A stretch of 64,000 nt of DNA from IMG/VR virus record IMGVR_UViG_3300042268_000564; one strand, written 5' to 3'. The notes beneath the pieces were generated by a model, which had not been told where the DNA came from, made no database searches, and worked only from the letters and a program-made list of their open reading frames with translations. This document shows positions 27,991 through 62,601 of the stretch, in pieces. This DNA comes from a virus. Its lineage: Duplodnaviria; Caudoviricetes. Both the position numbers and the translations under genes were made by a program. How positions within the stretch are numbered: the first letter of the stretch is position 1; each line of letters begins with the position of its first letter.

Positions 27991-29274
27991 ATGGGACAAG
28001 GCGGACGTGGTGGCGGAATCACAGTTACCAGAACATCAGATGGACAAATACAGTTAAGTGGTAGAGTCGGCAAGAAAATGCGTGAAAAACTTGGTGATGC
28101 TACTGCCGACAAACTTAATAAATTGGCGAGAGAAGGCAAGAAATTGAATGTTGGTGCGGTAAAAGCTGCACTTACAATTAAGGGCGCAAAAGGCACACCA
28201 AAAGTTCTCGCTGACACAATCGCAAATTTCAGTCAAAAAGGTGGCGCACCTGTTGGCACTAAGTTAAGAGTTGGGCTTAATAGCAAGGGTGAAGTTGGAA
28301 CCACAATGAGAGATTCCAGTGGCAAGCTTAAATTTAAAGCTACTGTTGATGAGCTTCGCAAAGTGACTAAACTCAAAAATTTGGTTCCAAAAGCTAATAA
28401 GGGCGAGAACGCAGGTGTCTCAGTTGCGAATCCTTTGAAAAGCAAGGCTAATCCTATTACCGTAGGACAAGCTCAGGCATCTGCTGCGGCAGGCGGGAAG
28501 TTTGGTGATAACGTTCCTAAGATTGGAGACATTAAAGGTAATAAAGCACCTAACGAAACTGCCATGAATTTGGTGAAATCACTCCAGAGTACAGCACAGC
28601 GAGAGATATCAAAACAAATAGCTGATGTTGCTGCAAAGCTCGGTCGTGACGCAAACCTTTCAAAAGAAGCTCATGCTGAAGCCATGGGCAAGGCTGAGAA
28701 GCTTTCTCTTGCTTCTAAGGAAGTTAAAGCCCGTCTTACTGGCAAAGAAGCTACTCTTGCTGATAAACACGCAGTAAGAGACCAAGTTCGTGCTGAGGCT
28801 ATTGCCGCTCTTAGTGCCAATAAAGATGTAGGACTCGCCAAGCAGATTCTTTCTCTTAAGAAAGAGTATGAGACTAAAGGTGTAATGGTTCTTATGACCA
28901 AAACTGGCACTGCTGCGACCGAGGGTAAGCGTGTTGGGCCTGATGCTGACACGCAATACAAAAGCACTACTGGTGCAGGTGCGAAACTTCCACCTAACAC
29001 CCACTATGGTTATTTCCAGACTGCAAATGTTGGAAAGACTGGCGATGCTGCTGGCAAACTGAATATTAGCATTACTGATGAAACTCGTAGATTGACTGGT
29101 GAAAAATCAGCGGCTGCTGCAACTGACAATCGTTTCACTACCACTCGTGCCGAAAATATTGACAGGATGTTTGTTAAAAATGGTAATCAGTGGAGCGAAG
29201 TTACTGACAAGGGACTTAAGCCAGTAAAAGATGTGTGGAAAGAAATTGGCGCAGAAGCTCCAAAAGCTGAATAA
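27991..29274 (+). CDS. Basic K/A/G-rich protein, member 1 of shared-N-terminus family
   Basis: N-terminus aligns with 31550, 36551, 40860, 61849; VANPLKSKANP motif. Confidence 0.7.
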   Translation: MGQGGRGGGITVTRTSDGQIQLSGRVGKKMREKLGDATADKLNKLAREGKKLNVGAVKAALTIKGAKGTPKVLADTIANFSQKGGAPVGTKLRVGLNSKGEVGTTMRDSSGKLKFKATVDELRKVTKLKNLVPKANKGENAGVSVANPLKSKANPITVGQAQASAAAGGKFGDNVPKIGDIKGNKAPNETAMNLVKSLQSTAQREISKQIADVAAKLGRDANLSKEAHAEAMGKAEKLSLASKEVKARLTGKEATLADKHAVRDQVRAEAIAALSANKDVGLAKQILSLKKEYETKGVMVLMTKTGTAATEGKRVGPDADTQYKSTTGAGAKLPPNTHYGYFQTANVGKTGDAAGKLNISITDETRRLTGEKSAAAATDNRFTTTRAENIDRMFVKNGNQWSEVTDKGLKPVKDVWKEIGAEAPKAE

Positions 29275-29291
29275 GTAATAAGGTTCACAAT

Positions 29292-29320
29292 AAAAGAGGC
29301 AGAAAATTCTGCCTCTTTTT
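29292..29320 (+). terminator. Intrinsic terminator
   Basis: AAAAGAGGCAGA-aaat-TCTGCCTCTTTT. Confidence 0.8.
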
Positions 29321-29325
29321 CCTTT

Positions 29326-29353
29326 TTGACAATGTTACAATTTGCTATATAAT
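29326..29353 (+). promoter_or_regulatory. sigma70-type promoter TTGACA-N16-TATAAT
   Basis: Perfect hexamers; ATG at 29360 lies at the expected start site. Confidence 0.8.
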
Positions 29354-29359
29354 AGCAAT

Positions 29360-29554
29360 ATGGACGATAAAGAAAAGATTGAGCTAGACGCATTAAACAT
29401 TAAAATCAAAGTAATGCGAGAGACGCAAATTTTGATACTAGTGTATCTATTTTTGATGGTTGTATGGTTTGCTTTGCAGGTGATGCAAGTATTGATTCCA
29501 GCCAAGCCAGAAATTAAAGCAGAAAAACCTCCTGAAGTAGTTGAGCTGAAGTAA
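29360..29554 (+). CDS. Small membrane protein (probably leaderless)
   Basis: One TM segment; no RBS, ATG 7 nt after -10. Confidence 0.55.
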   Translation: MDDKEKIELDALNIKIKVMRETQILILVYLFLMVVWFALQVMQVLIPAKPEIKAEKPPEVVELK

Positions 29555-29763
29555 TGGACTTTGATATAGAGCTTGCGCAACAAAATAAACAGGTTGCTCC
29601 ACCAGAGGTGCCACCAGAAGAACAAAATCCTGAACTTAAAGAACGACTAAAGCAACATGACAGGCTGCTTTATTGGTCAGTTATCTGCATGAAAATAGCC
29701 ACCTTTTCGTTATTCATTTCCATAATAAAAAGCACAGTAGAAGTGTTTTCTAAACTTTTTTAA
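29554..29763 (+). CDS. Small membrane protein
   Basis: C-terminal hydrophobic segment; TAATG coupling. Confidence 0.55.
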   Translation: MDFDIELAQQNKQVAPPEVPPEEQNPELKERLKQHDRLLYWSVICMKIATFSLFISIIKSTVEVFSKLF

Positions 29764-29781
29764 TTTTTTTTGCTTCACTGC

Positions 29782-29844
29782 TTGACACTTTTTTGCTTTT
29801 CATTATAATAAAAGTATAAAGATGAAAAACAAAGGAGCCGAGCA
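29782..29844 (+). promoter_or_regulatory. Promoter + RBS cassette (TTGACA-N16-TATAAT...AAAGGAGCCGAG), copy 1
   Basis: Near-identical to 55177-55236 and 56485-56540. Confidence 0.85.
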
Positions 29845-30153
29845 ATGAAAGTAACAATTTTCCATAAAGAACATGAATGGGGGTATGAATATTCACCCGT
29901 GGTTAACATGGACAAATGTGAAAAGGTTGCTGATGTAGAAGTGGCAACTGATAATGAAATGGAAGCTCTCGAAACAGCTTACTATCTCACCAATAACATT
30001 GATGAGTCATGGACTAACATGTCTAGACGCAGCAACATTGTGAGCACTCACCTTGAGAATGCACGTTCAACATCAGTTGGTGATGTGGCTGTTGTTAATG
30101 GTAAAACCTTCGTGGTTGCACCATGTGGCTTTGAAAAAGCTGTGATGGCATAA
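29845..30153 (+). CDS. Hypothetical protein, YodL-like motif
   Basis: RSTSVGDV...V..CGF pattern. Confidence 0.5.
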   Translation: MKVTIFHKEHEWGYEYSPVVNMDKCEKVADVEVATDNEMEALETAYYLTNNIDESWTNMSRRSNIVSTHLENARSTSVGDVAVVNGKTFVVAPCGFEKAVMA

Positions 30154-30163
30154 GGAGGCTAGT

Positions 30164-30760
30164 ATGTTAGTAGAACTTAAAGAGAAAAATGTTCTGGTTC
30201 GCAAATTGCCTTTAAAGATTCAAAATGTAATTAAGTGGTTGTTTAACGACCCGCCAAAGACTGCAAGAGTTTCATATGCTGCCAAAAAACGTGTTGGTGG
30301 CTCATGGCACGACTATAACGTTCCTACGGCTACGTTGCTTAAAATGTCGGGTGCTGTTGTGTGGGAAAGACATGGCTGCACTTATGAGAGCATGATAAAC
30401 GCAGACCCTGAAACTCGTGAGTTCATGGATGGCATGGAGAAAGAGATTCAGAGGGATGAGGCTCTGATTCTTACGCAGTCATATCCAAAAATTGTTGAAG
30501 TTATATACAATCCGATTGCCTCAACAAAAGAATACGTAAATATTTCGCCAGAAGCTGCAAAATTACTTTACGACATAAAAGGTGCGGGAACTAGCAAAGT
30601 CTATCGTGAACGTGTAATTGCAGGTGCGGCTGAAAGTGCATTTGACGAGCTTGAAGACAAAGGCTTTGTTTCTACAAGACGGACTCTGACACCGAAAGGT
30701 AAAGAATTGGCAAGAAACATTAATATTGCCGAAGTGGAATTTCATTTAAAAAACAAATAA
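30164..30760 (+). CDS. Hypothetical protein with C-terminal winged-helix-like segment
   Basis: ELEDKGFV....LTPKG. Confidence 0.55.
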   Translation: MLVELKEKNVLVRKLPLKIQNVIKWLFNDPPKTARVSYAAKKRVGGSWHDYNVPTATLLKMSGAVVWERHGCTYESMINADPETREFMDGMEKEIQRDEALILTQSYPKIVEVIYNPIASTKEYVNISPEAAKLLYDIKGAGTSKVYRERVIAGAAESAFDELEDKGFVSTRRTLTPKGKELARNINIAEVEFHLKNK

Positions 30761-30782
30761 TTTATAGTTCATACACTATTAT

Positions 30783-30813
30783 AAAAAGTGCCTGCAAATA
30801 CGGGCACTTTTTT
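30783..30813 (+). terminator. Intrinsic terminator
   Basis: AAAAAGTGCC...GGCACTTTTT. Confidence 0.75.
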
Positions 30814-30848
30814 ATTTTTCTAAAAAATAAAATAAAAAGTAAGAGGGA

Positions 30849-31085
30849 GTGCAAATGTCAGATGTAAACTTTGTAAGGATGAAGATGTGTGGCGGTTTGT
30901 TGGCGGAAGGCTTGCGACCAGCATGGGTGCAAGTAGAAAAACTTAACACTGGTGGATATATGGTGAAAGCGTTAGTTGTTAATGTTGCTACACCTGACAT
31001 TGAGGATGCACAGGTAATCCCTTTTGATTATAGAGTTGATGCAATTGAAAGCGGGGGCAAGCTGAATGACGATTTTAATGGCTGA
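30849..31085 (+). CDS. Hypothetical protein
   Basis: GAGGGAG RBS. Confidence 0.55.
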   Translation: MQMSDVNFVRMKMCGGLLAEGLRPAWVQVEKLNTGGYMVKALVVNVATPDIEDAQVIPFDYRVDAIESGGKLNDDFNG

Positions 31086-31527
31086 GAAATTCTCTTTTAA
31101 CTCGAAAGACAAAAAGAAGCAAAAACTGGAACGTCCTAAAAAAGGACGTCCACGCAATAAATTTGTAAGCTATAAAACTTATTGGTGCCTTCCTTATGGC
31201 TTGTTTTGTGACGCAGCTCGTCGTTGTGGCAAATGTGCTGAGGAATCGCCTGAGCATTCAATGCCTTATCCTTTTACTGATTTTGATTGTCAGAGATATG
31301 TAAAAATCTCATCGTCTTTTTTGACAAAGTTTCCGATAGAAAAGCTTACTAAGATTTTGCAGGACGCTTTTTTAAGTTTAATGTCTAAGTTGGGTGCTGG
31401 AACCAATGTAAATATGTTAGTTGAAGATATTCAAGAGAGTGATAACGGCAAGTTTTATGTAAAGTTTTGTGTGAAGTATAATTTTCAAGAGAACTTGCGT
31501 GAGAGGCATATTGAAGTTGTTGTTTAA
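31066..31527 (+). CDS. Hypothetical Cys-containing protein
   Basis: ORF in operon. Confidence 0.55.
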   Translation: MTILMAEKFSFNSKDKKKQKLERPKKGRPRNKFVSYKTYWCLPYGLFCDAARRCGKCAEESPEHSMPYPFTDFDCQRYVKISSSFLTKFPIEKLTKILQDAFLSLMSKLGAGTNVNMLVEDIQESDNGKFYVKFCVKYNFQENLRERHIEVVV

Positions 31528-31549
31528 GAAAAAGTAAAGGTGGTCTGTT

Positions 31550-33895
31550 ATGAAGGGTGGCTTATCAGTTGTAAAGGTATCGGATGGAAAGCTTAAATTT
31601 GCGGGGAAAATCGATTCTCGAACAAGAAAGGCACTTGGGGACAAGGCTGCTGATAAAATAGCTGGTCTCATAAAAAAGGGCACCCCTTTAAATTCAACTG
31701 CATTAAAAGCTCTTTTAACACATAAGTCTGCATTAGCTAAAAAGCTCTCGGATTTTGCAGCGAAGCGAGCGGGTAGCGCAGGTACTAAAATGTCAGTCAA
31801 AGATGACAAAGTAGCTTATTCTGGGAATAAAAATGCTACAATAAAGGTTTCGCCGTCTGCCGTATTCGGCAATAAGTCTAATCCTTATATTAATATAACG
31901 CAGGTCGATGTTAATAAGAATAAAGGCGTAATGGCGACAAAAGATTTGATAGATGACCTTGCTGAGAAATTAGGTGTGCCCAAAAATGCAAAATCTAACG
32001 TCACGGTTCGTGTGGCAGAGAATCGCAATGAAGAAAAAGAAAGTGGTATAACCAGTAAGTATGTTGGCGCCACTTTTATGCCTCGCAATAAGATTATTAC
32101 TATAAATAAGGGTTTGGTAAACGACATTGTAAAAAATAAGGGCAAAGAAGCTGCCGGGGTCCTTATTCATGAGATGGGGCATTTTATTGTTGGCGAAAAG
32201 AGAGCGAATGAGGGAACGACTTTGGCGCATGGCGGCCGCAGAGGCTTAACTCCCGCAGAGATTGCAGAAGAAATTGGTGTAGAATTGTTGGCACAATCTA
32301 TGTCTGATTCAAGGAACCGAATCGGCTACGAGGCTATTATTGCTCAGGGCACAAAGGCTGTTGCTACAATGATGAACATTCCGATGAAAGATGCCGCCGA
32401 AAAAATTATTAACGTTGGCTTGGCGCAAAACGCTTCAGAAGATGATACTAAACGTGTTCTTACTGGTTTAAGCATGATGAAAACATTGGGGAGAATGTCG
32501 GCAGTTGAGACCGTCAAGGCAAGAGATGAAGTTCTTGATGCTGCTGTAGAAATTTTTGAGAAGAAAGGCTTTGACGTGGTCAAAGATAGGCAAAATGCTC
32601 AAAAAGTTACAGAGGATTCTTTACTCACTGCAAGAGTAAGTGCGGCAGACACTCGTTGGTCGGCAGTTAACACCGCCAGACCCGATGTTGTTATGGTGTA
32701 TGCTGCCAGTGGTGGATTGCCCATGAAATTTGATAGTAAAAAATTAGAGGCTGAGGCGAAGCTGGCAACTGTTCATGTTCTTACTAATAGGATGAATGCG
32801 GCAGATATTTTAGTCAATCAAAATTTGCCGCAGGAATTAAAAACAAGATTAGCCGAAATGAGCTTGTTTAATCAAACGATTAGAGATGTAGCTGTGAAAG
32901 GGAAAACACCGCAGGAATTGATTGCCGACAATCAGCAAACTGTTTACAACAGGTTGCTATCTAATGAGCAAATTGCAAAAGTTGTGAATACGGCTTCGTC
33001 GAAAGAGTTTATTGCGAGATATAATGTTGCCAGTTTAACGGCGTTGACGACGGCTGAGACTGTTTTCAAAGCTCCTGATGCTAACGCAAGAACGTTGGCT
33101 TACGCTTTGAAAATGGCTGGTTCTACTGGGATAGATATGGGCACTGGCATGACAAAAGACATAGAAAAAAATGCTGATTTAATTTATGCAGCAAGAACTG
33201 GTGATGCAAGTGCGCTGGCAAAGGTAAAAGAAGTGTTGCCGAAGCAGTTCCAGCAGATTAACAAGAATATCGCTGAAAATGCTGAGAAAGTTAAATTTGT
33301 AGAACAAGTTTCACAGAATGATGCAGCAAAAAAAGAACTCGACAGGGCACTGGGTGGCATGGTCTATCTTGCAAGAATGAATGCAGAACATCCTCGCAAG
33401 GTGAGCATGAAGGTTGTGGAAACAAGGATTCGTGACACCGTTTCTGCTTTGGAAAGAGCGATGATTGCGGCTACTGGCAACCCTGAATCAGGGAAACGTC
33501 TTAATGATGTCTTGAGAGATGCTTTCAGTAATGTTTCTAATATGGCAAAAAATGTTACTGCAAAAGGTAAGCCTGCTACACCTGCATCGTGGTCGGTTCC
33601 TAATGCAGGAAAACCTACTCCAACACCAAAAGTTGAACCGCCAAAGGTTGAATCGCCAAAAGTAGAGAAGCCGAAAGCAACAAGCAAGCCTCGTACGAGC
33701 AAGAAAACAGAATTTTCTATAGGTCAGCAGCACAAGGATATGTTAACAAATATTATGATGAAAACTCAGATGGGGCAAAGCACGTCGTCTTTGAAAGAGA
33801 GCAAGCCTGATACCTATAAAGAGCTTGAGGACAATGGTTTTGTCAAAGATGGGAAATTAACTGACAAAGGTCGAAATTACTTCATTAAAAAGTAA
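31550..33895 (+). CDS. Shared-N-terminus family member 2 carrying an HExxH zincin domain
   Basis: N-terminal family domain, VFGNKSNP, then GATF...IITIN...LIHEMGHF...EEIGVE; Pro/Lys linker; ELEDNGFV..GKLTDKG end. Confidence 0.7.
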   Translation: MKGGLSVVKVSDGKLKFAGKIDSRTRKALGDKAADKIAGLIKKGTPLNSTALKALLTHKSALAKKLSDFAAKRAGSAGTKMSVKDDKVAYSGNKNATIKVSPSAVFGNKSNPYINITQVDVNKNKGVMATKDLIDDLAEKLGVPKNAKSNVTVRVAENRNEEKESGITSKYVGATFMPRNKIITINKGLVNDIVKNKGKEAAGVLIHEMGHFIVGEKRANEGTTLAHGGRRGLTPAEIAEEIGVELLAQSMSDSRNRIGYEAIIAQGTKAVATMMNIPMKDAAEKIINVGLAQNASEDDTKRVLTGLSMMKTLGRMSAVETVKARDEVLDAAVEIFEKKGFDVVKDRQNAQKVTEDSLLTARVSAADTRWSAVNTARPDVVMVYAASGGLPMKFDSKKLEAEAKLATVHVLTNRMNAADILVNQNLPQELKTRLAEMSLFNQTIRDVAVKGKTPQELIADNQQTVYNRLLSNEQIAKVVNTASSKEFIARYNVASLTALTTAETVFKAPDANARTLAYALKMAGSTGIDMGTGMTKDIEKNADLIYAARTGDASALAKVKEVLPKQFQQINKNIAENAEKVKFVEQVSQNDAAKKELDRALGGMVYLARMNAEHPRKVSMKVVETRIRDTVSALERAMIAATGNPESGKRLNDVLRDAFSNVSNMAKNVTAKGKPATPASWSVPNAGKPTPTPKVEPPKVESPKVEKPKATSKPRTSKKTEFSIGQQHKDMLTNIMMKTQMGQSTSSLKESKPDTYKELEDNGFVKDGKLTDKGRNYFIKK

Positions 33896-33904
33896 TATAG
33901 TTGC

Positions 33905-35716
33905 ATGGCAAAAACAAGTAATTCAGCAACAGGGCTTTGTTTAAATTATAGAAAGCTCAAAGATGCAGAAGCAAAGATAGACGAGACTGTACCTATCCTT
34001 GATGTAATGAAAAGGATGGGGCTAAAAGTCACACGGCTGGGAAATACTTATCGGACGTTATGCTTTTATCATAACGATACCAAAGAGCCAAATCTTTCGT
34101 ATATTGCTAATGGCAAGAACTTTGTCTTTTGTTTTTGCTGTAGATTGACTCGTAGACCAGTTCGGCTTTGGCAGGATTTCTTTTCTAAGACATTCGAAGA
34201 GGCTGTTTGTGACCTTGCCCCTATGGCAGGGATTAGTCTTTCAGATTTAGAGGGTGCACCTTCACGAGAAGAGCTTCTGCACAAAGAGGCATTAGCTGTA
34301 AATCTGGAAGTGGCGAATAAGATGCATGACAATGTAAAGCTTACGCCGCAGATTATGGAACATTTAAGGACTCGGTTTTCATTGGAAGCTATTAATCAGT
34401 GGCAGATAGGTTATTGTCCTGACGGCGATGAGCTTGTAACCTATTTAAGACATAAAAAGAAATTTTCCTACGATGCCATCAAGCTTGCAGGGATAAAGCC
34501 AAAGATGTTTCATGATAGAATCATTTTCCCATTAAAGAACCTTTATGGAAATATTGTAGCGTTCAGTGCTCGTTCTTGGGGAGTAACCCCTGAAGATGAA
34601 AAGGCAAAACGCACTAATCCAGACGGGAATGATTCGCCAAAATATATCAATACTTATGCCAGTAAGATTTTTAACAAATCCTCTGAAATGTATGGATTAT
34701 GTGTCGCCAGAGAGCATGTTAAAGCAAATGACAATTCCTTGATTCTTGTAGAGGGTCATCCTGACGTTATAGCAATGCATGAAGCAGGCTTTTTAAACAC
34801 CGCAGGCGTAATGTCAGCAAGCTTTAATATTGTTGCTGCAAAGATGTTAGAAGCTGTTGGGGTTCAGAAGATTATTTTTTGTTTCGATGGTGATAGAGGT
34901 GGCAGAGAAGGAACTTTGCGGATATTAAAGCAGGAGTCTAAGATTAACCAGCAGCTTATGGAACATGGTGGCTGTTTGCGCTTTTATGCTGTTGGTATTC
35001 CGTGGGGTTGCGACCCTGAAGAATACCTTAGAAATAAAGACAATGTTATCAGTATGAAAAAGATTTTGCGCAAGCCGATGACGTGTCTTGATTTTTATAT
35101 CTACAATCTTTTAAGGACTCAAACACCCCAAACATTGTCTGAAAAATTAGATTTTATTTATAATATTCGAAAAGAGCTGCATAAAGATATTAAGCCAGCA
35201 GAACTTCAGGTTACGGAAAAGTTTTTGTGTGATTCATTTGGCTTGGATTCAATTCAACTGTGTGAATATGCTAAGTCAATGGATTACAAAGAAGAAGTCT
35301 TTAAAATGGAAGATGAATTTATTGCGGCAGTCTTGAATGATAAATTTTTCCAAAAAGTGGCATTGGAAGTTGTGCCGCCTGAGTGGATACAGGGACGGAA
35401 TAATGTAGTGTATCGAGCGATTCTTGAATTGTATAAGAATAATGATTACATTGCTTTCGAGACTATGTGGGATAAGATTGTTTATTTGGGCATGGCAGCT
35501 CATCTTGGTGTAAAAAAAGAGGAGTTGGCAAAAAGATTTAAACGTGTGCCATCAGACCCGTTGCCAATGATTGCGGATTTGAAGCGTAGGGGCAGGAAGC
35601 GTAGGGTTGCTGATACTATGGCAAGGATTTGTGCGAAAGCAAAGAATCTTACTGAGCAAGAGCTTGTGGAAGAAATAAAAAAATGTGCATTAATTTTTGA
35701 AGCAGAATTTAATTGA
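33905..35716 (+). CDS. dnaG: DNA primase (DnaG type)
   Basis: CHC2 Zn finger CFYHND..CFCC, RIIFP, FSAR, KYIN, Toprim VEGHPDV and DGDRGG, DnaB-binding-like C-terminal domain. Confidence 0.93.
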   Translation: MAKTSNSATGLCLNYRKLKDAEAKIDETVPILDVMKRMGLKVTRLGNTYRTLCFYHNDTKEPNLSYIANGKNFVFCFCCRLTRRPVRLWQDFFSKTFEEAVCDLAPMAGISLSDLEGAPSREELLHKEALAVNLEVANKMHDNVKLTPQIMEHLRTRFSLEAINQWQIGYCPDGDELVTYLRHKKKFSYDAIKLAGIKPKMFHDRIIFPLKNLYGNIVAFSARSWGVTPEDEKAKRTNPDGNDSPKYINTYASKIFNKSSEMYGLCVAREHVKANDNSLILVEGHPDVIAMHEAGFLNTAGVMSASFNIVAAKMLEAVGVQKIIFCFDGDRGGREGTLRILKQESKINQQLMEHGGCLRFYAVGIPWGCDPEEYLRNKDNVISMKKILRKPMTCLDFYIYNLLRTQTPQTLSEKLDFIYNIRKELHKDIKPAELQVTEKFLCDSFGLDSIQLCEYAKSMDYKEEVFKMEDEFIAAVLNDKFFQKVALEVVPPEWIQGRNNVVYRAILELYKNNDYIAFETMWDKIVYLGMAAHLGVKKEELAKRFKRVPSDPLPMIADLKRRGRKRRVADTMARICAKAKNLTEQELVEEIKKCALIFEAEFN

Positions 35717-35740
35717 CAAGTCTTGGCGTGCATCTATAAT
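35713..35740 (+). promoter_or_regulatory. sigma70-type promoter TTGACA-N16-TATAAT
   Basis: Perfect hexamers; -35 overlaps dnaG stop codon. Confidence 0.8.
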
Positions 35741-35850
35741 ACGTGTATCCAATTTTGAGGTATTTTAATGAACATTCAAGGTGCACGGCAAGTTTACAAG
35801 CGCAAAGGTGAGAGTCCTGTTATTTCTGGGAGACGACAGGTAACAAGGTC

Positions 35851-36465
35851 GTGGAAAAAGATAGTTTTTTTGTCTGTGATTATGATTATTATTCTGTGTG
35901 GAAAGGTTCTGGCAAAATAATGAAGACACCCTGTAGCACTGGCTGTAATATGTGTGGAACATGTTGTGTGATTTATACCATTGACGATGAAAAGCTCCAG
36001 AAAGCGTCTTTTAAACGTTGTCCGAACTTAGTTTACGAAGGAAACAAGGCTTTATGTTCTATTCATGAAACAAAAGGAAAATGTCAGCCTGATACGTGTA
36101 AAGAATATGATGCTACAAAACGTCAAAAGACGGTTTGGTATGATGATAGATTTAAGTTCTATAAGCAGCGTGAGTTTATGGAGCATTGGGCATGGTGTTC
36201 AAAGCAAGGGTATCTCAAACATTTGCCGATTATGCAAGCTATAGCGAATAAAGATTATTCTGAGAAGGTAACAGAACAAGTTTTTCGTTATTTTGTTCAT
36301 CCAGTTTGTATGGATATTGACGGTACGCTTGCAGTAGAGAAAGAATGGTTTGGGTTGTGGCAAGGATTGAAAGACTATCTTAAAACTTTGCCAGATGAGG
36401 TTAAGAGTAAGTGGTGTGCTAAGAATAATAAGAATTATCGCAAGAAGCCATTGCAAGTAATTTGA
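35851..36465 (+). CDS. YkgJ-like CxxCxxCC cluster protein
   Basis: CNMCGTCC, CPNL, CSIHE, PDTCKEY; start may be the internal ATG (MKTPC). Confidence 0.65.
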   Translation: MEKDSFFVCDYDYYSVWKGSGKIMKTPCSTGCNMCGTCCVIYTIDDEKLQKASFKRCPNLVYEGNKALCSIHETKGKCQPDTCKEYDATKRQKTVWYDDRFKFYKQREFMEHWAWCSKQGYLKHLPIMQAIANKDYSEKVTEQVFRYFVHPVCMDIDGTLAVEKEWFGLWQGLKDYLKTLPDEVKSKWCAKNNKNYRKKPLQVI

Positions 36466-36483
36466 TTGTCAAAAATAAGCAAT

Positions 36484-36511
36484 AAAAGCCCTGATTTTAC
36501 AGGGCTTTTTT
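36484..36511 (+). terminator. Intrinsic terminator
   Basis: AAAAGCCCTG-atttta-CAGGGCTTTTT. Confidence 0.8.
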
Positions 36512-36550
36512 CTTTTTAAAGTATTAACCATATTAATATGGAGAAGTTTT

Positions 36551-37720
36551 ATGGTTAAAGGAACTGGCATAAAAGCGACAAAAGTTTCTGACAATAGTAT
36601 CACTCTTGGCAAACAACCAGCAGGGGTTGCGAGACGATATGGTGGCGCAGTGAGAAATGCGCTGGGACGAGCCTCAGTCAAAGGCAGTAAGCTTAATAAA
36701 ACAGCTTTACTTGCAGCTTTAACTGTTAAAGGAAGTAAATTAACGCCGGACAGGGCTAAGAAGCTTGTAGATAAGGTATTTAATGAAGCTGCGCCTCGTA
36801 AAGTGGCGGTAGCGAATCCTTTTAAGAATAAAACAAACCAGATGGCATTCTTTGATTTCTTTAAAAAGAAAGAGTCGTCGGAAGAATCTACTGAACAAAG
36901 ACTGGCGAGAGAAAAGGGACTCCAGCAAGGTGCAAGAAACGAAGTAACAGGACGTGCTGTTGGCGAAGCGAGAGTAAAACGTGACACTTATCTTCAGAAG
37001 CAGAATGAAGCTGGCAAGATAGACAAGAAGTTCCAAGATATGCCAATTTTCCAAAATAAAACGAATCAACTTTCAGGCAAGGCATTAGGCGAGACAACAC
37101 AAATATCTGGCAAGGTTGAGGCTGGAATTTTTGACGTGGCGAGGTCTAATGTTGAAAGGATTGCCAGAGAGAACGGTATGGATAATAAAGTGGCAAGGAA
37201 CATGATTAATACGCTTGCCGACCTTTCGTTGAATCAAGGTATTCAAGACCGTCAAGCATTAGAGGTCGCATTTAAAGAATCTATGCAAGCTTTTGGGAAC
37301 GATGCTAAAGCTATAAGTCGTTCTGCAAAAGAGCTGAACATTTCTAAATCGGATTTGCAAGACGCTGTTAAAAAGGCTCAAGGAATGAGTATTGACAATA
37401 TTCTTGGCAAGACCAATAGTGCATTTCAAGCATCAGTTGAATACTTCCCATCAAAAACATTGGCAGCGACTCATAAAGTGAGTCCGAAAATAATGGATTT
37501 GGTTGGTAATAACTTCCGTGACATGCTTTATAATAAAAATATGAGCAGAAAAGATATGGCTGCTGAATTCGACCGCACAAATAATGCAATGGCTCAAATG
37601 GAACAAGACAAACCAAAAGCATTTGCGAATAAAGCAAAAGAATATGGACTTACACCGAGAGAACTTTCAGACTCAGTAAGAAGATTGCAAAAACTTTCTA
37701 TTGACGATTTGTTACACTAA
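36551..37720 (+). CDS. Shared-N-terminus family member 3 with tandem helical repeats
   Basis: First ~95 aa nearly identical to 40860 and 61849; NKTNQ twice, GKTNS once. Confidence 0.75.
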   Translation: MVKGTGIKATKVSDNSITLGKQPAGVARRYGGAVRNALGRASVKGSKLNKTALLAALTVKGSKLTPDRAKKLVDKVFNEAAPRKVAVANPFKNKTNQMAFFDFFKKKESSEESTEQRLAREKGLQQGARNEVTGRAVGEARVKRDTYLQKQNEAGKIDKKFQDMPIFQNKTNQLSGKALGETTQISGKVEAGIFDVARSNVERIARENGMDNKVARNMINTLADLSLNQGIQDRQALEVAFKESMQAFGNDAKAISRSAKELNISKSDLQDAVKKAQGMSIDNILGKTNSAFQASVEYFPSKTLAATHKVSPKIMDLVGNNFRDMLYNKNMSRKDMAAEFDRTNNAMAQMEQDKPKAFANKAKEYGLTPRELSDSVRRLQKLSIDDLLH

Positions 37721-37737
37721 TAGAGGACTCTTTCAAG

Positions 37738-37763
37738 AAGCACTCCTTCGGGGGTGCTTTTTT
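37738..37763 (+). terminator. Intrinsic terminator
   Basis: AAGCACTCC-TTCG-GGGGTGCTT TTTT. Confidence 0.85.
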
Positions 37764-37765
37764 GT

Positions 37766-37793
37766 TTGACATTGTTGCCTATTTCGTTATAAT
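37766..37793 (+). promoter_or_regulatory. sigma70-type promoter TTGACA-N16-TATAAT
   Basis: Perfect hexamers. Confidence 0.8.
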
Positions 37794-37810
37794 AAATGTG
37801 AGGTGAAAAA

Positions 37811-38209
37811 ATGTTTGTTTACAATGATGGTGGCAGGGCAAAGGCTGGTTTCAAAGGTGAGACAAGAGACTGTGTCACAAGGGCTATTGCTATTGCTACT
37901 GGGAAGCCTTATAAAACTGTTTATGATGCCCTTAATAAACTCGCTGGCAAAAGTGTAGCAAGAACTGGTGTTCCACGAAAGATTTATGAGGCTTATTTAC
38001 TAGCTGACGGGTGGCGTTGGGTTCCTACGATGCTTGTGGGCAAAGGTTGCAAGGTTCATTTGTTGGCAGATGAATTGCCAAAGGGCAAGTTGATTGTTCG
38101 GGTTTCTAAGCATATTGTTGCTGTTATTGATGGCGTAATTCATGATACAAGTGACCCAAGTAGAGGTGGCTCACGTTGCGTCTATGGTTATTTCACAAAG
38201 GAGAAGTAA
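37811..38209 (+). CDS. Conserved phage protein (DGGR...DCVTRAIAIA...H...DG)
   Basis: Cys/His/Asp pattern suggestive of a small papain-like fold. Confidence 0.55.
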   Translation: MFVYNDGGRAKAGFKGETRDCVTRAIAIATGKPYKTVYDALNKLAGKSVARTGVPRKIYEAYLLADGWRWVPTMLVGKGCKVHLLADELPKGKLIVRVSKHIVAVIDGVIHDTSDPSRGGSRCVYGYFTKEK

Positions 38210-38210
38210 T

Positions 38211-38405
38211 ATGAGTGCAATGAAAGATGCTCAATTAGAGGCTCAGGAAAAACTTTCTGTTGAATGGCGACAAGTTTATATGTTGTTGGATAGAGAGAAA
38301 AAAGCAAAGCGTAAAAATTACGCCGCTTTGAATGATTATATGATTCGATTACGCTCCATTGAAGAACAGGCAAAAGAGATGAATATTGAATTGATTATCA
38401 GGTGA
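38211..38405 (+). CDS. Hypothetical protein
   Basis: AAGGAG RBS before ATG 38211. Confidence 0.55.
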   Translation: MSAMKDAQLEAQEKLSVEWRQVYMLLDREKKAKRKNYAALNDYMIRLRSIEEQAKEMNIELIIR

Positions 38406-38446
38406 GAGTAAAATATAGATAAACCATAATAGGACGGTTTATTTAT

Positions 38447-38869
38447 ATGCCAGAAAGCCTTAAAGACGGGGTTTGGTACCCCGAAATGATTCTTAAAGAC
38501 CTTGTTGACGCAGGTATCTCTGCCAAAACAGTAGGTTACGATATTGTTGATGTTACGGGCAAACGTTTTTTTTATTTTGCCGATGACGAAAAAATCCCAT
38601 TTGCAGTTGTAGCTTGGAAGCAAGATGACTATATGATTCTTGCTTTTGCACAAGAAATGCCGACTAATATAACAAAAGATATCGTAAAAGCTTTCCGTAA
38701 AGTGCTCGGTTATCCACCATTTGTTCAATACGACTCTTTTCAGCGTGGAGAAGCTTTCAAGGTATTTGAGTGGGCTAAGAATGATGAGGACGATAAATTT
38801 ATTACAATCATGACATTGCCTAACATTAAGAATGTGACAAAAGTGAAAGATGAGTATTACAATGCCTAA
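38447..38869 (+). CDS. Hypothetical protein
   Basis: ORF. Confidence 0.55.
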   Translation: MPESLKDGVWYPEMILKDLVDAGISAKTVGYDIVDVTGKRFFYFADDEKIPFAVVAWKQDDYMILAFAQEMPTNITKDIVKAFRKVLGYPPFVQYDSFQRGEAFKVFEWAKNDEDDKFITIMTLPNIKNVTKVKDEYYNA

Positions 38870-39323
38870 TCCACGAAAACGACTTGCTGATTTATCAGAA
38901 CAAAAACAAACATTTCTGCCTGAGAAATATGTTCTTTTAATTAAAACACCAAAAAAGGCGTTGGCGGTAGAAGGGCGCAAAGATTTTACAGAACATTCTA
39001 GCAGAGATGCGTCTACTGTTGTTTGGTTTGAGTTATTGTATAAACTCTCGCAATTAAAGGGGTTGGAAACTGTTAATCGAAAGTATAGATTAACTCATTA
39101 CAGTCCATTGCTGGCAGTGCCTGAAGGGTTCAGTGGTATGACAATTACCCATGAGCAAGATGGCACGATAACTTTTGGCGGAAGATTTTTTGCGAATTGT
39201 GCGTATTCGTCGGAGGATACAACATTAGAATTGTTTGCATATTTTGATGAAGCTTTGCAAGTGCCGGATGATGAAGTAAGAACAGTAATGCAGGAATTTT
39301 GCGTAGGGATGCATGATTTGTGA
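38850..39323 (+). CDS. Hypothetical protein
   Basis: ORF overlapping neighbours. Confidence 0.55.
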   Translation: MSITMPNPRKRLADLSEQKQTFLPEKYVLLIKTPKKALAVEGRKDFTEHSSRDASTVVWFELLYKLSQLKGLETVNRKYRLTHYSPLLAVPEGFSGMTITHEQDGTITFGGRFFANCAYSSEDTTLELFAYFDEALQVPDDEVRTVMQEFCVGMHDL

Positions 39324-39919
39324 GGCAAAAGATGGATAATGTAGGTTTAATTTTGTGGGATGGGACAACTTCTGTAGAGAATATGACTTCACAGCACAGT
39401 ATGATGCGTGGAGCTGGCATAAATAGAATTTGTGTGGTTGGATGTGGTCAAACAGCTCGTCCAAATTCTTTGATAACATTGTATGAGAATAAGCCTATTG
39501 GGTCTTACGCAGCTCTTGTTCGAGGGGTTAATTATTGTGAGATGTCAATGTTTAATGGTTCTACAGTGAACCAAGAAGGTGTGTTTATTCATTATGCAGA
39601 TGAGCCATTAACATTGAATATTATTAATAAGATTATGCAAATATCTACTATTTGCAGCAATGGAAGCGCAGATATTGTAATGGCTCTTAGACTGGTGGAT
39701 GATAGCTCGAAGCCTAAATATGCTATAGGGCATGATGGAACAATTCAAGGGGTTCAAGAACGTTCAAGAGGGCATGAAAATTTCGGAACTCTATTTATAA
39801 AACGTGGCTTTTTAAAAGGAATGCCAACAGGCTTTACAAAAATACATGAATTTATAGATTGGGCTGTAAAGAACGATACAGCTAAGATTTACGGTGCAAT
39901 AATTAGTTGTAGTAAATAG
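39320..39919 (+). CDS. Hypothetical protein, possibly degenerate sugar-nucleotidyltransferase fold
   Basis: AGINRICVV, YADE, KYA....G pattern but lacks the GxGTR loop. Confidence 0.35.
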   Translation: MRQKMDNVGLILWDGTTSVENMTSQHSMMRGAGINRICVVGCGQTARPNSLITLYENKPIGSYAALVRGVNYCEMSMFNGSTVNQEGVFIHYADEPLTLNIINKIMQISTICSNGSADIVMALRLVDDSSKPKYAIGHDGTIQGVQERSRGHENFGTLFIKRGFLKGMPTGFTKIHEFIDWAVKNDTAKIYGAIISCSK

Positions 39920-39946
39920 CTGTTTTAAATAGATTGTAAGCCGTGC

Positions 39947-39979
39947 CCCCTGCTTTTTTCGCATTAGCAGGGGTTTTTT
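39947..39979 (+). terminator. Intrinsic terminator
   Basis: CCCCTGCT...AGCAGGGG TTTTTT. Confidence 0.7.
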
Positions 39980-40043
39980 CTTGCTTTTTATAAAGTATTT
40001 ATTAGCGGCAGAGCTGGCAACGGGGACTAAAGGAGATTTTTTG

Positions 40044-41963: not shown

Positions 41964-43406
41964 ATGATTATAAACATTAACCAGACTGAGCAAAAAATCT
42001 TTGACACCGTGCTCGCAGTAGCAAGTGTGCACGGCATCGTTCTTCGTGTGGCTGGTGGCTGGGTAAGAGATAAAATGCTCGGTAAAGACAGTCACGACAT
42101 CGACATTGCCGTAGATGGTGTAATCAGTGGTAAGCCAGTGACTGGCGCAGTATTTGCTGCTTTGGTTGCTGATGCTACAGGCAAAACATTTGCTGTGATT
42201 GATGCTAATCCAGAACAATCTAAGCACCTTGAAACAGCAACTATTGATATTCATGGTGTTTCTGTAGATTTTGTCCACCTCCGCAGTGAAACATATGGCG
42301 ATAGCCGTATTCCAACTGTGGAAGTTGGCACCCCTCAAACTGATGCAGAACGCAGAGACCTCACAATCAATTCTCTTTTCTTTAATATCAATACAGGAGA
42401 AATTGAAGATTTCACTGGCAAGGGTATTGATGATTTGAGAGCTGGCATAATCCGCACACCTCGTGAAAGTAAGAAAACTTTGCTGGACGACCCTTTGAGA
42501 GCTTTGCGTGCAATTCGTTTTGCGGCAAAATTTGGCTTTGAACTTGATGCAAGTCTTGTAGAGGCTATGCAGGATGCTGACGTTCATCATGCTTTTAACA
42601 ATAAAGTTAAAGTTGAAAGAATGATTAAGGAACTCGACAGTATAATGCAGTTTGCCCCTGTAAGAGGGGTAAAATTGATTATTGAATCAGGCTTGCTTGA
42701 CAATCATATTCCTGAACTTAAAGATATGGATTTTGACCAGCAAACAAAATATCACGATAAAACAGTGCTTGACCATACTCTTGCACTTACTGAAGAGCTG
42801 CATCAGCAGTTTCCTGATGATATTGACCTTAAGTGGGCTGCAATCCTTCATGATATTGGCAAGCCAAGTTCAGCTACCCCTCACAAGGACGGCGTAAGTC
42901 TTACCTTTGTAAATCATGAATTGGTGAGTGCCGACATTGCGGAGCGTGCTCTTACTAATCTTCGTTTCAGCAATGAAAGAGTGAGACGTATCAGACGGCT
43001 TGTTAAAAGGCATATGATTAACTTCAACCCGAAATGGTCTGACTTTAAGTTCAAGAAATGGCTCAGGGAGCACTTCGAATCAGCCGATGAGGTAATGAGC
43101 CTTGTAGCTTTGCGAGGTGCTGACATTAATGCATTGAATCCAGAACACAATGTAGAGCCAAAAAGAAACCATGACGCTCTTGTTGATAGAATCAGCAGGG
43201 TTGATGTGGCTGAAGCGATTGGCATGAAGTCTTTCGTAAATGGACACGAACTTCAGAAAATCTTTAATCGTAAGCAAGGTGAATGGATTAGAGAAGTTCA
43301 GGGCAAGATGATTGATTTGCAGCTTCAAGGTATGGTTAATAACCAACAGGAAGCTCTTGCTCGTGCTCAGAAATGGGCTGATAGGGAATTGGAACAATCT
43401 AGTTGA
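41964..43406 (+). CDS. cca: Class II tRNA nucleotidyltransferase (CCA-adding enzyme) with HD domain
   Basis: Motif A GGWVRD..DIDIA, loop RSETYGDSRIP, RRDLTINS, DDPLRALRAIRF, HD domain H....DHT...LHDIGK...NHE. Confidence 0.9.
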   Translation: MIININQTEQKIFDTVLAVASVHGIVLRVAGGWVRDKMLGKDSHDIDIAVDGVISGKPVTGAVFAALVADATGKTFAVIDANPEQSKHLETATIDIHGVSVDFVHLRSETYGDSRIPTVEVGTPQTDAERRDLTINSLFFNINTGEIEDFTGKGIDDLRAGIIRTPRESKKTLLDDPLRALRAIRFAAKFGFELDASLVEAMQDADVHHAFNNKVKVERMIKELDSIMQFAPVRGVKLIIESGLLDNHIPELKDMDFDQQTKYHDKTVLDHTLALTEELHQQFPDDIDLKWAAILHDIGKPSSATPHKDGVSLTFVNHELVSADIAERALTNLRFSNERVRRIRRLVKRHMINFNPKWSDFKFKKWLREHFESADEVMSLVALRGADINALNPEHNVEPKRNHDALVDRISRVDVAEAIGMKSFVNGHELQKIFNRKQGEWIREVQGKMIDLQLQGMVNNQQEALARAQKWADRELEQSS

Positions 43407-50303: not shown

Positions 50304-50999
50304 ATGACAATTATTCCAATGGTTACAGATGTCACCAGACGCACGAACGACATTTACTCTCGCCTTTTGCAAGACCGTGTTATCTTTTTGGCTGATGAGA
50401 TTACAGATGAGACGGCGAATCTTGTTGTTGCGCAATTGTTATTTCTTGCGGCAGAAGACCCGAACAAAGAAATTTCGCTTTACATAATGAGTCCGGGTGG
50501 CATGGTTACGGCAGGCATGGCAATTTATGACACGATACAGCATATTAAGCCAGATGTTTCTACCTGTTGTATCGGTGCAGCCGCCAGTATGGGTGCATTT
50601 TTGTTGGCAGCAGGAACAAAGGGTAAGAGATATGCCCTCCCTAATGTTGAAATCATGATTCATCAGGTTCTCGGTGGTGCTATGGGGCAAGAGTCTGACA
50701 TTCAGATTACAGCGCAGCAGATGGCAAAAACAAAGGCTCGTATCAACCAAATTTTGGCTAAACATACTGGACAGCCTTTGGACAAGGTGACGGCAGATTG
50801 TGATAGGGATTATTATTTGACAGCAGAAGAAGCTGTGGAATACGGTTTGATTGACAAGATTCTTTATCCTCGTGAAAAAAGTAATACAAAAAAAACAAAA
50901 ATGACTGAGGTTGAAGATAAGAATGGTAAGAAAAAGCTTTCTCAGGAGTCTCTTGAAAAGAAATATGGAAAATTTAAACCAGCAGGAAAGAAAAAGTAA
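50304..50999 (+). CDS. clpP: ATP-dependent Clp protease proteolytic subunit
   Basis: DIYSRLL.DRVIFL, AQLLFL, SPGG, AASMG (Ser), MIHQ (His), DRD (Asp), YGLID. Confidence 0.96.
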
Positions 51000-60495: not shown

Positions 60496-60499
60496 TGAG

Positions 60500-61519
60500 A
60501 TGAAAGTTTATAAGACGCCTGCGGGTGAACATGGATTGATTTTGCAGGAGGGGACAGATGATTTTCGTTTGTTTCAGAATTTTCTGGCAACAACGGGTAA
60601 GAATTTGCCTGATACCAGATTAAAGATGCTATTTGAAAAGATGCAGTCTGCTTATCAGAATGCCGAAAATAAGACCGACGCTCCAGCAACGCCAGCAAAT
60701 GTTGTGAGTCAGGGGTATTCAACTCAAACAAATCAGAAGCTTGATGTTATAAGTCAGAAGATTGATTCGGTGATTCGTGCTATCGGTGGCATTGGGAATA
60801 TTAATCCTGCTGCTGCGAAAATTGACTTGTCAGCTCTTGAAGGTGCGATTGCTCGCATGGAAAAAACTATTGGCAATCAACTTGTTGTAAAGATGGAAGC
60901 CCTAACCGAGGGTGTAAGTTTTAACAATCTTTGTGTCGACATTAAAGATATCGTAAAGAAAGAGGTTGCTGAAATAAAATCAACCGTTCAGCAATTATCT
61001 GCATATCACAAACAGATTGACGCAATTAATAATATTGATATTGGTTCGACTCAGTTGCTGCCATCTGCTACGCAAGTGGAATCTATTGTGACTCAGGCTG
61101 CTGCTGATGAATATAAGGCGACAAAAAGGGCAATTGAAGAAGCCAGAACTGAACATGCAAGTGTTGATGAGATAAAAAAGGAAGATGAGGATAAAACCCT
61201 TCCTCGACTTAACCCCGGCGAATCTGTTGATAAAGTAACAATGGAAGATTTTACTAATCCTGCCGAAGATGAAGCAGTTGTACAGGAAGATATTATTCGC
61301 TATCCTGCCAGAAAGAAAAAGAATACTAGACCAAAGTGTTATGGGAATTTTGATTCTACTGATGAATCCCCTTGCAGGTCTTGCGCTTGGGTGAATGATT
61401 GTTCGCTGAATGAGCCAGTTAAGGAAACAAATAAGCCGGGATGTTATGGGCAGTATAAAGCTGATTTGAGGTGTGGTAGCTGTCCTGAAAGTAATGGCTG
61501 CATGAACGACTCGATGTGA
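60500..61519 (+). CDS. Coiled-coil protein with two C-terminal Cys-rich repeats
   Basis: PKCYG..C..C...C and PGCYG..C..C....C. Confidence 0.6.
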   Translation: MKVYKTPAGEHGLILQEGTDDFRLFQNFLATTGKNLPDTRLKMLFEKMQSAYQNAENKTDAPATPANVVSQGYSTQTNQKLDVISQKIDSVIRAIGGIGNINPAAAKIDLSALEGAIARMEKTIGNQLVVKMEALTEGVSFNNLCVDIKDIVKKEVAEIKSTVQQLSAYHKQIDAINNIDIGSTQLLPSATQVESIVTQAAADEYKATKRAIEEARTEHASVDEIKKEDEDKTLPRLNPGESVDKVTMEDFTNPAEDEAVVQEDIIRYPARKKKNTRPKCYGNFDSTDESPCRSCAWVNDCSLNEPVKETNKPGCYGQYKADLRCGSCPESNGCMNDSM

Positions 61520-61520
61520 G

Positions 61521-61763
61521 GTGCTTATGACTACAAAAATCATATTTAATGACAATGTAGATGTTGTAGTTATCAGGAAAGCAATGGGGCTTGGTGTAGA
61601 CTCATTTGCAGCTATTATGGGTGTTTCAAAGCGTATGGTTGATGATTGGGAAAAAGGCAGAAAGTCGCCAAAGGGAGCAGCTAAGAATCTTTTGATTGTT
61701 GCCAGAGAAAATCCTGATATGGTGAAAGAAGTATTGTTAAATACAGTAAAAATTGAACGGTAA
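61521..61763 (+). CDS. XRE-family HTH protein (HigA/MqsA antitoxin-like)
   Basis: IRKAMGL....FA..MGVS...V..WE.GRKSPKGAA..LL. Confidence 0.8.
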   Translation: MLMTTKIIFNDNVDVVVIRKAMGLGVDSFAAIMGVSKRMVDDWEKGRKSPKGAAKNLLIVARENPDMVKEVLLNTVKIER

Positions 61764-61777
61764 TTATTGATATAATT

Positions 61778-61806
61778 AAAAGCCCTGCGATTGCGGGGCT
61801 TTTTTT
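61778..61806 (+). terminator. Intrinsic terminator (paralogous to 40793-40817)
   Basis: AAAAGCCCTGC-gatt-GCGGGGCTTTT. Confidence 0.8.
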
Positions 61807-61848
61807 ATTGTAAAGTATTGACTAAAGAATGTTACAGGAGTGTTCAGT

Positions 61849-62601
61849 ATGGTCAAAGGTGACATAAAAGCTACGAAGGTTTCTGATAATAGTATCACTC
61901 TTGGCAAGCAACCAGCGGGTGTAGCCAAGAGATATGGTGCGCCAGTTAAAGCTGCGCTTGATAAAGCCGCAGCTAAGGGCAGCAAGCTTAATAAAACAGC
62001 ACTTATGGCTCTTTTGACTACAAGGGGTAGTAAACTTACTCCTGAGAAGGCGGCTAAAATTGTATTGCAAGTGTTTAAAAATGCAAAACCTACTATAAAG
62101 ATTAATACTTCCGCTATTTTTAAGAACAAAACTAATCAAATGAGCGTGAATGAGATTATTGGAAATAATAGTAAGGTTCAACAGAAAGAATATGACCAAA
62201 AGTTGATGATGGGTAAATATGTGGATAGTCTTTCTAGGAATGAACAACGACGCATGTTACAGGTTTTGCATGATGGTTTTAACGGTGACAAACTTGATAT
62301 GGCAGGACTTTCTAAGAATATTAATGAGACAGCAACGATTCTTAAAGGTTTATATAAAAATAGTGGCTTAGACCCTTTGCAATATCAGGGAGCTGTGCAA
62401 GTTGACTTGTTTAAAGCATTGGGCGGGAGATTTGAGGGGAAAAAAGCAGTAATGCCGGGGAAGCTAGTAACGTCATCATCTGAGTCACCTTTTAAAAATG
62501 TTAATATGACATCTTATAAGACAGACCCATTTAAGGCTTTTGCAGAACGCATGGCATCTTTAGCGACAAAAACTGCTGTTAAAAAAAACAGAAATGACTG
62601 A
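61849..62601 (+). CDS. Shared-N-terminus family member 5
   Basis: ATG at 61849 after AGGAG; conserved N-terminal domain, AIFKNKTNQ motif. Confidence 0.75.
   Translation: MVKGDIKATKVSDNSITLGKQPAGVAKRYGAPVKAALDKAAAKGSKLNKTALMALLTTRGSKLTPEKAAKIVLQVFKNAKPTIKINTSAIFKNKTNQMSVNEIIGNNSKVQQKEYDQKLMMGKYVDSLSRNEQRRMLQVLHDGFNGDKLDMAGLSKNINETATILKGLYKNSGLDPLQYQGAVQVDLFKALGGRFEGKKAVMPGKLVTSSSESPFKNVNMTSYKTDPFKAFAERMASLATKTAVKKNRND

Follow-up and report, generated by a model that had tools for sequence, protein, structure and literature searches.

A family of jumbo phage proteins joining a shared basic leader and a private junction motif to unrelated cargo

Introduction

Five dispersed genes in a 64,000-nucleotide stretch of viral DNA (IMG/VR record IMGVR_UViG_3300042268_000564) encode proteins that begin with a common basic leader domain and continue into cargo that differs from gene to gene. 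This stretch – referred to here as the window – corresponds to bases 255,068–319,067 of a 393,839-bp virus record (39.6% GC) from an uncultured jumbo phage, and positions are those of the window unless the genome is named. Replication and RNA-repair genes in the window include those for a DnaE-type polymerase, a helicase, SbcCD, a DnaG primase, and a Ro60-like protein, and the window additionally codes for an M16 peptidase, a canonical ClpP at 50337–50864, and a CCA-adding enzyme. A first-pass annotation, made from the letters of the window, had proposed that the leader is a reusable targeting tag that loads diverse effectors into the phage head for injection with the DNA.

Here, we describe a modular family of six genes in this genome, in which the leader is followed by a short junction motif that is exclusive to the family and covaries by lineage, and in which promoters are of a class distinct from that of neighboring genes. 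A CCA-adding enzyme occurs both with the leader–motif unit, in a relative, and without it, in the window. Read from its sequences, the architecture – a constant handle, a private junction peptide, and free exchange of cargo – looks like a sorting leader with a release site. By analogy with known phage systems, we give a probability of about 0.4 to the reading that the leader is cleavable and sorts proteins into the virion for delivery. The first-pass annotation is partly supported: its structural part holds and is stronger than first stated, while capsid loading and injection remain an analogy.

A common leader domain at the start of five window genes

All five open reading frames (ORFs) of the family in the window, starting at positions 27991, 31550, 36551, 40860, and 61849, were confirmed as existing. 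A leader profile hidden Markov model (HMM) searched against six frames of the whole genome returned exactly the five genes that had been named, with E values of 1e-28 to 1e-40 and the next match at E > 2. The leader stands at residue 1 in all members, and its conserved positions are S-D-G, G31, and L-N-x-x-A-x-x-A. The leaders of 36551, 40860, and 61849 are shared as had been claimed, and at 68–77% identity across about 95 aa (BLASTP E 1e-22 to 1e-34) they fall short of the 'almost identical' of the first description. Those of 27991 and 31550 are diverged, also as described, with 31–40% identity to the other three (E 8e-7 to 0.13), and match one another at E 7e-12. The cargo parts are mutually dissimilar, with no pair better than E 0.1 by BLASTP, in agreement with the proposal that they are unrelated.

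The leaders are strongly basic, with a net charge of +9 to +20 and a pI of 10–11.2. AlphaFold2 models built with 20–24 family sequences give a compact domain with leader pLDDT of 85–91 in both of its forms, followed by a junction with pLDDT < 50. The short form, of about 80 aa, is predicted to consist of a beta-hairpin and four helices, and the long form, of about 130 aa and present in 27991, 31550, and many relatives, is predicted to add a three-strand meander and a helix. Foldseek gave no match at E 0.001 or better for the leader models (the short form against PDB and the long form against BFVD); in the PDB search with the short form, the HU chain 1hue appeared at E 8.6 over 33 residues only. 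In a wide VIA search, the best Z values were 3.8 (short form) and 4.2 (long form), and the proteins matched were unrelated. As modeled, the leader is thus folded and basic, and resembles no known fold that these searches could detect. The first-pass annotation had named a match to a known DNA-binding family as a point that would count against it, and the Pfam, PHROG, Foldseek, and VIA searches gave no such match, in family or in fold; HU/IHF-like and SAP/HeH DNA-binding domains, considered as candidates, drew no Pfam match. A complex prediction of the leader with the major capsid protein scored 0.00, a value that counts neither for nor against binding.

The individual proteins differ in leader form, motif number, and cargo. 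All are encoded on the plus strand. P0001 (27991..29274, 427 aa) has a long-form leader at aa 1–about 132 and the motif ANPLKSKANPI at aa 146–156, and its cargo, of unknown fold, is conserved among the relatives P0017, P0018, and P0054. P0002 (31550..33895, 781 aa) carries its leader, the motif SAVFGNKSNPY at aa 103–113, a zincin-like peptidase domain whose HEMGH is the HExxH that had been noticed, and a long helical tail; a DnaG-type primase begins 10 nt after it, in an order that is identical in relatives L013 and L024. P0003 (36551..37720, 389 aa) has a short-form leader at aa 1–about 85, motifs ANPFKNKTNQM at aa 88–98 and PIFQNKTNQL at aa 165–174, and a cargo of two helical repeats of about 100 aa each (internal repeat E 2e-7), which bears out the helical-repeat cargo of the earlier description. 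P0004 (40860..41831, 323 aa), directly upstream of the CCA-adding enzyme gene, has its leader followed by the motifs ANPKKNRTLVDM at aa 88–99 and AMLGNKSNPM at aa 132–141. P0005 (61849..62601) comprises 250 aa from the ATG at 61849, which is the true start of this last gene in the window, with a leader, the motif SAIFKNKTNQM, and a small cargo. The PHROGs and Pfam profile libraries gave nothing significant for these five proteins (no PHROG match at E < 0.001). Sequence and profile searches against PDB with the P0001 and P0002 cargos and with the zincin alignment likewise returned no meaningful match.

Two features of the protein ends were also seen. The end of P0002 (window 33600–33895) contains one unit of about 55 aa (FS..Q.HKDMLTN...YKELE.NG), which is duplicated in the relative P0055 (L024:14150–14533) and may be a small binding domain. 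P0004 ends in -YDLL (41817–41831) and P0003 in -DDLLH (37703–37720).

The family is larger than the five members first counted. A sixth member lies outside the window at genome 75,753–76,340, has a degenerate leader, and was detected via the junction motif; from the motif onward, its cargo is homologous to that of P0013, which comes from a relative and has a leader that is plainly recognizable. In a relative, a ferritin-like gene (L016:9505–9996) lies directly before the counterpart of this sixth member and closes a block of Big_5/Laminin_G-like genes. The 183-aa ORF at the equivalent position in this genome (genome about 75140–75688) has no PHROG match.

A junction motif exclusive to the family

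Directly after the leader, within a stretch predicted to be disordered, lies a junction peptide of the form [AN]-P-[LF]-x-[NDG]-K-[ST]-[SN]-x-[MIL]. A position-specific scoring matrix (PSSM) was built from eight instances in this genome and used with a cut-off of 14 bits to scan all ORFs of the genome; scores above 14 bits were found only in the six family proteins, and the motif was likewise family-exclusive in about 90 kb of relatives' DNA. Each protein has one to four copies; 36551 and 40860 have two apiece, and counts in relatives reach four. Copies also stand between cargo modules, and segments between motifs are as short as 35–50 aa.

The motif covaries by lineage, being FKNKTNQM in this genome, NPLKDKSSKM in lineage B, and ALGGKKSEM in lineage C. 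It is kept at the protein level while its synonymous codons vary freely, which argues that selection acts on the peptide and not on the DNA. A role as a hidden ribosome-binding site with an internal start was rejected, given this synonymous codon variation and the lack of a Shine-Dalgarno sequence. For this genome, the PSSM scan likewise rules out a role as a general prohead-protease site.

A CCA-adding enzyme with and without the leader

The leader–motif unit is a precise add-on, as seen by comparing two versions of one enzyme. The window encodes an untagged CCA-adding enzyme (41964..43406, plus strand) with its own perfect sigma-70 promoter at 41918–41945. In a relative's tagged CCA-adding enzyme (P0027, 572 aa), residues 100–572 are 70% identical to the window enzyme from its residue 3, and the surplus 99 residues are exactly leader plus motif. 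To judge from its sequence, the enzyme therefore needs no leader, as would be expected of a removable pro-region. The untagged gene has an early-type promoter and the tagged one sits inside a family-gene array on a relative's contig (L009), an arrangement that fits two routes to early enzyme.

Promoters and expression units

Family genes carry a promoter-like box rather than the sigma-70-type promoters of their neighbors. Exact matches to the box, TAAAGTATT, occur 21 times in the genome, and 19 of these occurrences sit 18–51 nt before a ribosome-binding site and ATG (11% for scrambled controls); copies in the window are at 26967, 36517, 39991, 45304, and 61811. An exact box lies 25–29 nt before the ATG of 36551 and of 61849 and the variant TAAAATATT lies before 40860, each with a strong terminator hairpin ahead of it. 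All on the plus strand, these are a hairpin at 36484–36509 and a box at 36517–36525 upstream of P0003 (36484..36525), a hairpin at 40793–40810 and the variant at 40822–40830 upstream of P0004 (40793..40830), and a hairpin at 61778–61803 and a box at 61811–61819 upstream of P0005 (61778..61819). A further exact box (26967..26975, plus strand) precedes ORF 27011, and a unit comprising ORFs 27011 and 27382 and P0001 probably starts there and is closed by a terminator at 29292–29319. The first-pass proposal that most members follow such a box instead of a sigma70 promoter therefore stands for 36551 and 61849, for 40860 with the variant, and probably for 27991 by way of the unit box; it fails for 31550, which lacks a box next to it and continues directly into the gene for the primase.

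Perfect TTGACA-N16-18-TATAAT promoters number 93 in the genome and are dense at 0–50, 90–110, 280–310, and 370–390 kb, and nearly absent from 150–280 kb, where head, tail, and replication genes lie. By their sequence they form a very clean early class matching the host sigma-70 consensus. Six of them are interspersed with the family genes, at 29326–29353, 29782–29809, 35713–35740, 37766–37793, 41918–41945, and 43403–43430, and each of these six, spanning 29,326–43,430, stands directly before a neighbor of a family gene, the untagged CCA gene included. The family genes themselves are without such early promoters, in line with the first-pass description. The TAAAGTATT box also precedes tail-fiber and tail genes, at genome 71701, 97606, 41010, 232067, and 241160, and by this use of the box the family genes fall into a non-early class, with virion genes among its members. 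In lineage B, where the box is TAAAATATC, a cassette of terminator, box, untranslated region, and leader is found on each of five separately promoted family genes of L009.

Relatives and range of cargo

Searching 1.84 billion representative proteins with the leader profile gave 20 matches, about 17 of which are true members (206–700 aa) with the leader at positions 1–100 and never as a stand-alone leader; three weak internal matches in very long proteins (P0021, P0022, P0025) resemble composition matches. Cargo in this set matches the Pfam families LRR_5, HEAT, DUF2958, RelA_SpoT (weakly), RNA_ligase, and PolyA_pol/HD, and further cargo comprises the zincin peptidase and, in relatives, an HD-like protein. 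Exact-protein look-ups place the relatives' contigs in anaerobic-digester and similar samples; the samples for lineages B–D are JGI 3300076254–76256 and 3300076587 and Logan ERR14373510 and ERR14788039. A 6-kb query had no close DNA relatives among GenBank phages by megablast, tblastn of P0003, the P0001 cargo, and the P0002 cargo against 50,697 phage records found no match, and leader-alignment scans of IMG/VR and the JGI metagenome collection found no confirmed relatives. The family is so far restricted to a small clade of uncultured jumbo phages.

Variable cargo on a reusable module recurs in these related phages, where the module is again present in multiple copies and has a promoter cassette of its own; absence of the pattern elsewhere would have counted against the first-pass annotation. 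The 29.5-kb contig L009, of lineage B, has five clustered family genes, two of which are separated by one other gene. Next to these comes a sixth protein, a CCA-adding enzyme that starts with a diverged leader and the motif. In L012 a DUF2958 member is followed by a leader-bearing RNA ligase (P0026) with the motif on both flanks. A zincin member of the P0002 type is present in three of the four sampled lineages (A, B, and D), and a zincin member stands before the primase in three lineages. Elsewhere among the relatives, a member of the 27991 type follows SbcCD, and another member lies between a phosphoesterase and the CCA gene. These kept neighbors indicate that the family is old and syntenic in the clade.

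Candidate proteases

The enzyme that would cut the motif is probably a dedicated one rather than the general prohead protease, because no other protein of this genome, the capsid protein included, has the motif. Two candidates are the family's own zincin, of the P0002 type, and the neighboring M16 (insulinase-type) peptidase, which is encoded at 19379..21523 on the plus strand, 6.5 kb upstream of the first family gene, and has an intact HFTEH and an acidic tail of about 280 aa. The M16 gene is syntenic in the relative L024, where the order is SSB, M16, SbcD, SbcC. A genome search for PF03420 (gp21-type) and PF04586 gave no match, and the prohead protease was not located. The M16 tail is rich in Asp/Glu and Pro, and has a CxxC...CxxC zinc-ribbon-like segment.

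Comparison with known systems

The closest precedent in principle is the capsid-targeting sequence (CTS) of phage T4, an unstructured tag of about 10 residues on IPI–III and Alt. The tag is followed by an L/I-x-E site, also present in the major capsid protein and in core proteins, at which the prohead protease gp21 cuts; Alt is processed at both ends (PMC9026906). As with the leader described here, an N-terminal tag is placed on otherwise unrelated proteins, among them enzymes that act, or here would act, in the next host, and is followed by a protease site, which in our family is putative; by analogy the motif-flanked RNA ligase P0026 would be trimmed at both ends, as Alt is. The differences are that the leader here is a folded domain of 80–130 aa, that the motif is private to the family, and that no gp21-type protease (PF03420) was detected. 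Packaging is proven in T4 and proposed for our family.

Jumbo phages offer a second parallel. Ejection (E) proteins of phiKZ and SPN3US have N-terminal propeptides of 111–254 aa, cut at several sites, and are delivered to the host; the SPN3US cleavage motif is also present in the portal and the prohead protease, and the E genes were verified in the virion proteome (PMC10052503, PMC5694885). There, as here, paralogous families are found in jumbo phages, and the leader of 90–150 aa with its repeated motifs would be comparable to such a propeptide if it is cleaved. In contrast, there is no sequence or PHROG similarity between the two, and the cargo here is enzymatically diverse and encoded by genes in the replication region.

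Phage polyvalent and MuF-linked effectors share the combination of a constant N-terminal module with swappable effector domains. RelA/SpoT and zincin peptidases are recurrent domains in them (PMC5512222), and they have been proposed to process themselves through an embedded metallopeptidase (PMC5512222, PMC5576092). However, a Pfam scan of the five window proteins finds no MuF, portal, or other known anchor domain, and the family genes are not beside the portal and lie outside the head-morphogenesis module. Moreover, the polyvalent systems are one giant polypeptide, whereas here the genes are mostly separate, each with its own leader copy and a defined junction motif.

A more distant likeness is to mitochondria, where presequences are short, basic amphipathic helices that are removed by the M16 metallopeptidase MPP. 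A basic N-terminal element and an M16 peptidase are both present in our phage, but the leader is a folded domain, and a link between the M16 enzyme and the motif is only conjectural. Against these precedents, both the leader domain and the junction motif are new families that lack a catalogued relative, and the principle of an N-terminal tag combined with a protease site on exchangeable phage cargo is already known.

Proposed virion loading and its alternatives

We propose that the six genes encode pro-proteins, each consisting of a folded basic leader, a disordered junction peptide, and unrelated cargo, and that some of these would hold several cargo modules with further copies of the junction peptide between them. 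The leader would act as a common sorting handle that brings these proteins to a single destination, most likely the inside of the phage head as it assembles, and the junction peptide would be the site at which a site-specific protease frees the cargo, which would then exit with the DNA at the next infection. Proteins delivered in this way would include the zincin peptidase and, in relatives, the CCA-adding enzyme, the RNA ligase, HD-like and weakly RelA/SpoT-like proteins, and repeat proteins. Cleavage, the protease responsible, localization in the head, and injection are the parts of this scheme that we infer; head loading and delivery are favored because of the analogy with the precedents above and because of the promoter class.

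Several observations weigh against virion loading. The PSSM scan did not find the motif in the major capsid protein or in any other head-region ORF, whereas T4 and phiKZ/SPN3US use one protease motif for cargo and shell proteins alike. Family genes are located 85–120 kb away from the TerL and capsid genes, amid replication and RNA-repair genes, and the P0002 type is probably co-transcribed with the primase, a replication gene, because the two are contiguous in three lineages. The TAAAGTATT class includes genes for non-structural proteins (a phosphoesterase and a homing-type endonuclease), so that 'late' is not proven for it. Finally, the leader, being basic and folded, could equally be a nucleic-acid binder.

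This last point leads to the strongest alternative, intracellular recruitment, in which the basic leader would bind nucleic acid or a hub such as tRNA, a Ro60-like ribonucleoprotein, the replication factory, or phage DNA, with the motif as a linker or docking peptide and neither cleavage nor packaging taking place. The charge of the leader is as such a model would have it, several cargos act on tRNA ends (the CCA-adding enzyme, the RNA ligase, the HD-like protein, and weakly RelA/SpoT), and the genes adjoin that for the Ro60-like protein within their replication and RNA-repair setting and keep their place beside primase, SbcCD, and CCA genes in relatives. It accounts less well for zincin, LRR, HEAT, DUF2958, and helical-repeat cargos with no obvious nucleic-acid substrate, for a leader without a match among known RNA- or DNA-binding families or folds, and for a CCA-adding enzyme that in this phage, by its sequence, can do without the leader. 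Where motifs lie on both sides of an enzyme or delimit segments of 35–50 aa, they resemble polyprotein punctuation and not a single docking site, and the promoter class of the family genes differs from that of their RNA-repair and early neighbors. We regard recruitment as somewhat unlikely, and as the alternative to be taken most seriously.

Timed release with no link to the virion is improbable, though motif exclusivity speaks for it as well. Here the leader would be an inhibitory or stabilizing pro-domain of a zymogen, and the zincin, M16, or ClpP would cut the motifs in the cytoplasm. The motif is unlike anything in head proteins, lineages A, B, and D all keep the zincin member, the nearby M16 peptidase is conserved and has its HxxEH intact, a canonical ClpP is encoded in the window, and there are multi-module proteins with repeated motifs. 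However, one pro-domain would hardly inhibit many unrelated folds, non-enzymatic repeat proteins included, and the strong basic charge and the leader's own non-early promoter cassette are left unexplained. An artefact, whether K/A/G-rich low-complexity similarity (the leaders are Lys/Ala/Gly-rich, and P0021, P0022, and P0025 show composition-like weak internal matches) or recent tandem duplicates with diverged C-termini, is refuted by HMM matches down to E 1e-40 with the next at E > 2, the confident and consistent fold prediction, the conserved S-D-G, G31, and L-N-x-x-A-x-x-A positions, the different Pfam families among the cargos, and the CCA-adding enzyme both with and without its leader.

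Implications

If the leader is a head-loading tag, it is a natural, modular, and portable handle for folded enzymes in a very large capsid, supplied with its own release site and distinct both from the 10-residue T4 CTS and from MuF anchors. Phages would then be able to carry tRNA-repair enzymes ready-made in the head, a point relevant to the survival of huge phages under anticodon-nuclease and related defenses in the first minutes of infection. A more specific version, which we consider rather doubtful, is a self-contained delivery system of this clade: the private leader would load a changeable set of enzymes, notably those of tRNA repair (the CCA-adding enzyme, the RNA ligase, and the HD-like protein) and a zincin maturase, into the capsid, a private protease site with no connection to head maturation would free them, and the cargo would counter tRNA-targeting defenses, with a given enzyme supplied either early (untagged) or pre-packaged (tagged). 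The CCA-adding enzyme in its tagged and untagged forms amounts to a clean natural experiment. Should the destination prove intracellular, the family still provides a new domain with a lineage-covarying linear motif, the reader of which – protease or docking partner – can be sought directly.

Genomic setting

Head and tail genes of this phage lie upstream of the window, and the family genes occupy genome 283–318 kb, apart from the sixth member at 75.7 kb. TerL (990 aa) is encoded at genome 188,052–191,021 (L008:8052–11021), the HK97-type major capsid protein at genome 198,405–199,451, and sheath and baseplate proteins at genome 203–231 kb. Two ORFs between TerL and the capsid gene, one of 1120 aa and one of 1135 aa at genome 194427–197831, gave no informative matches. 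ORFs near genome 226–230 kb were considered as 'portal' and 'protease' and rejected; they encode baseplate proteins. Residues 266–474 of TerL draw endonuclease- and HNH-type profile matches, and its sequence suggests an inserted homing-endonuclease or intein-like segment. The phage genome also contains an IS200/IS605-type transposase at 82775–83953 on the minus strand (L002:2775–3953), matching phrog_506 at E 3e-119.

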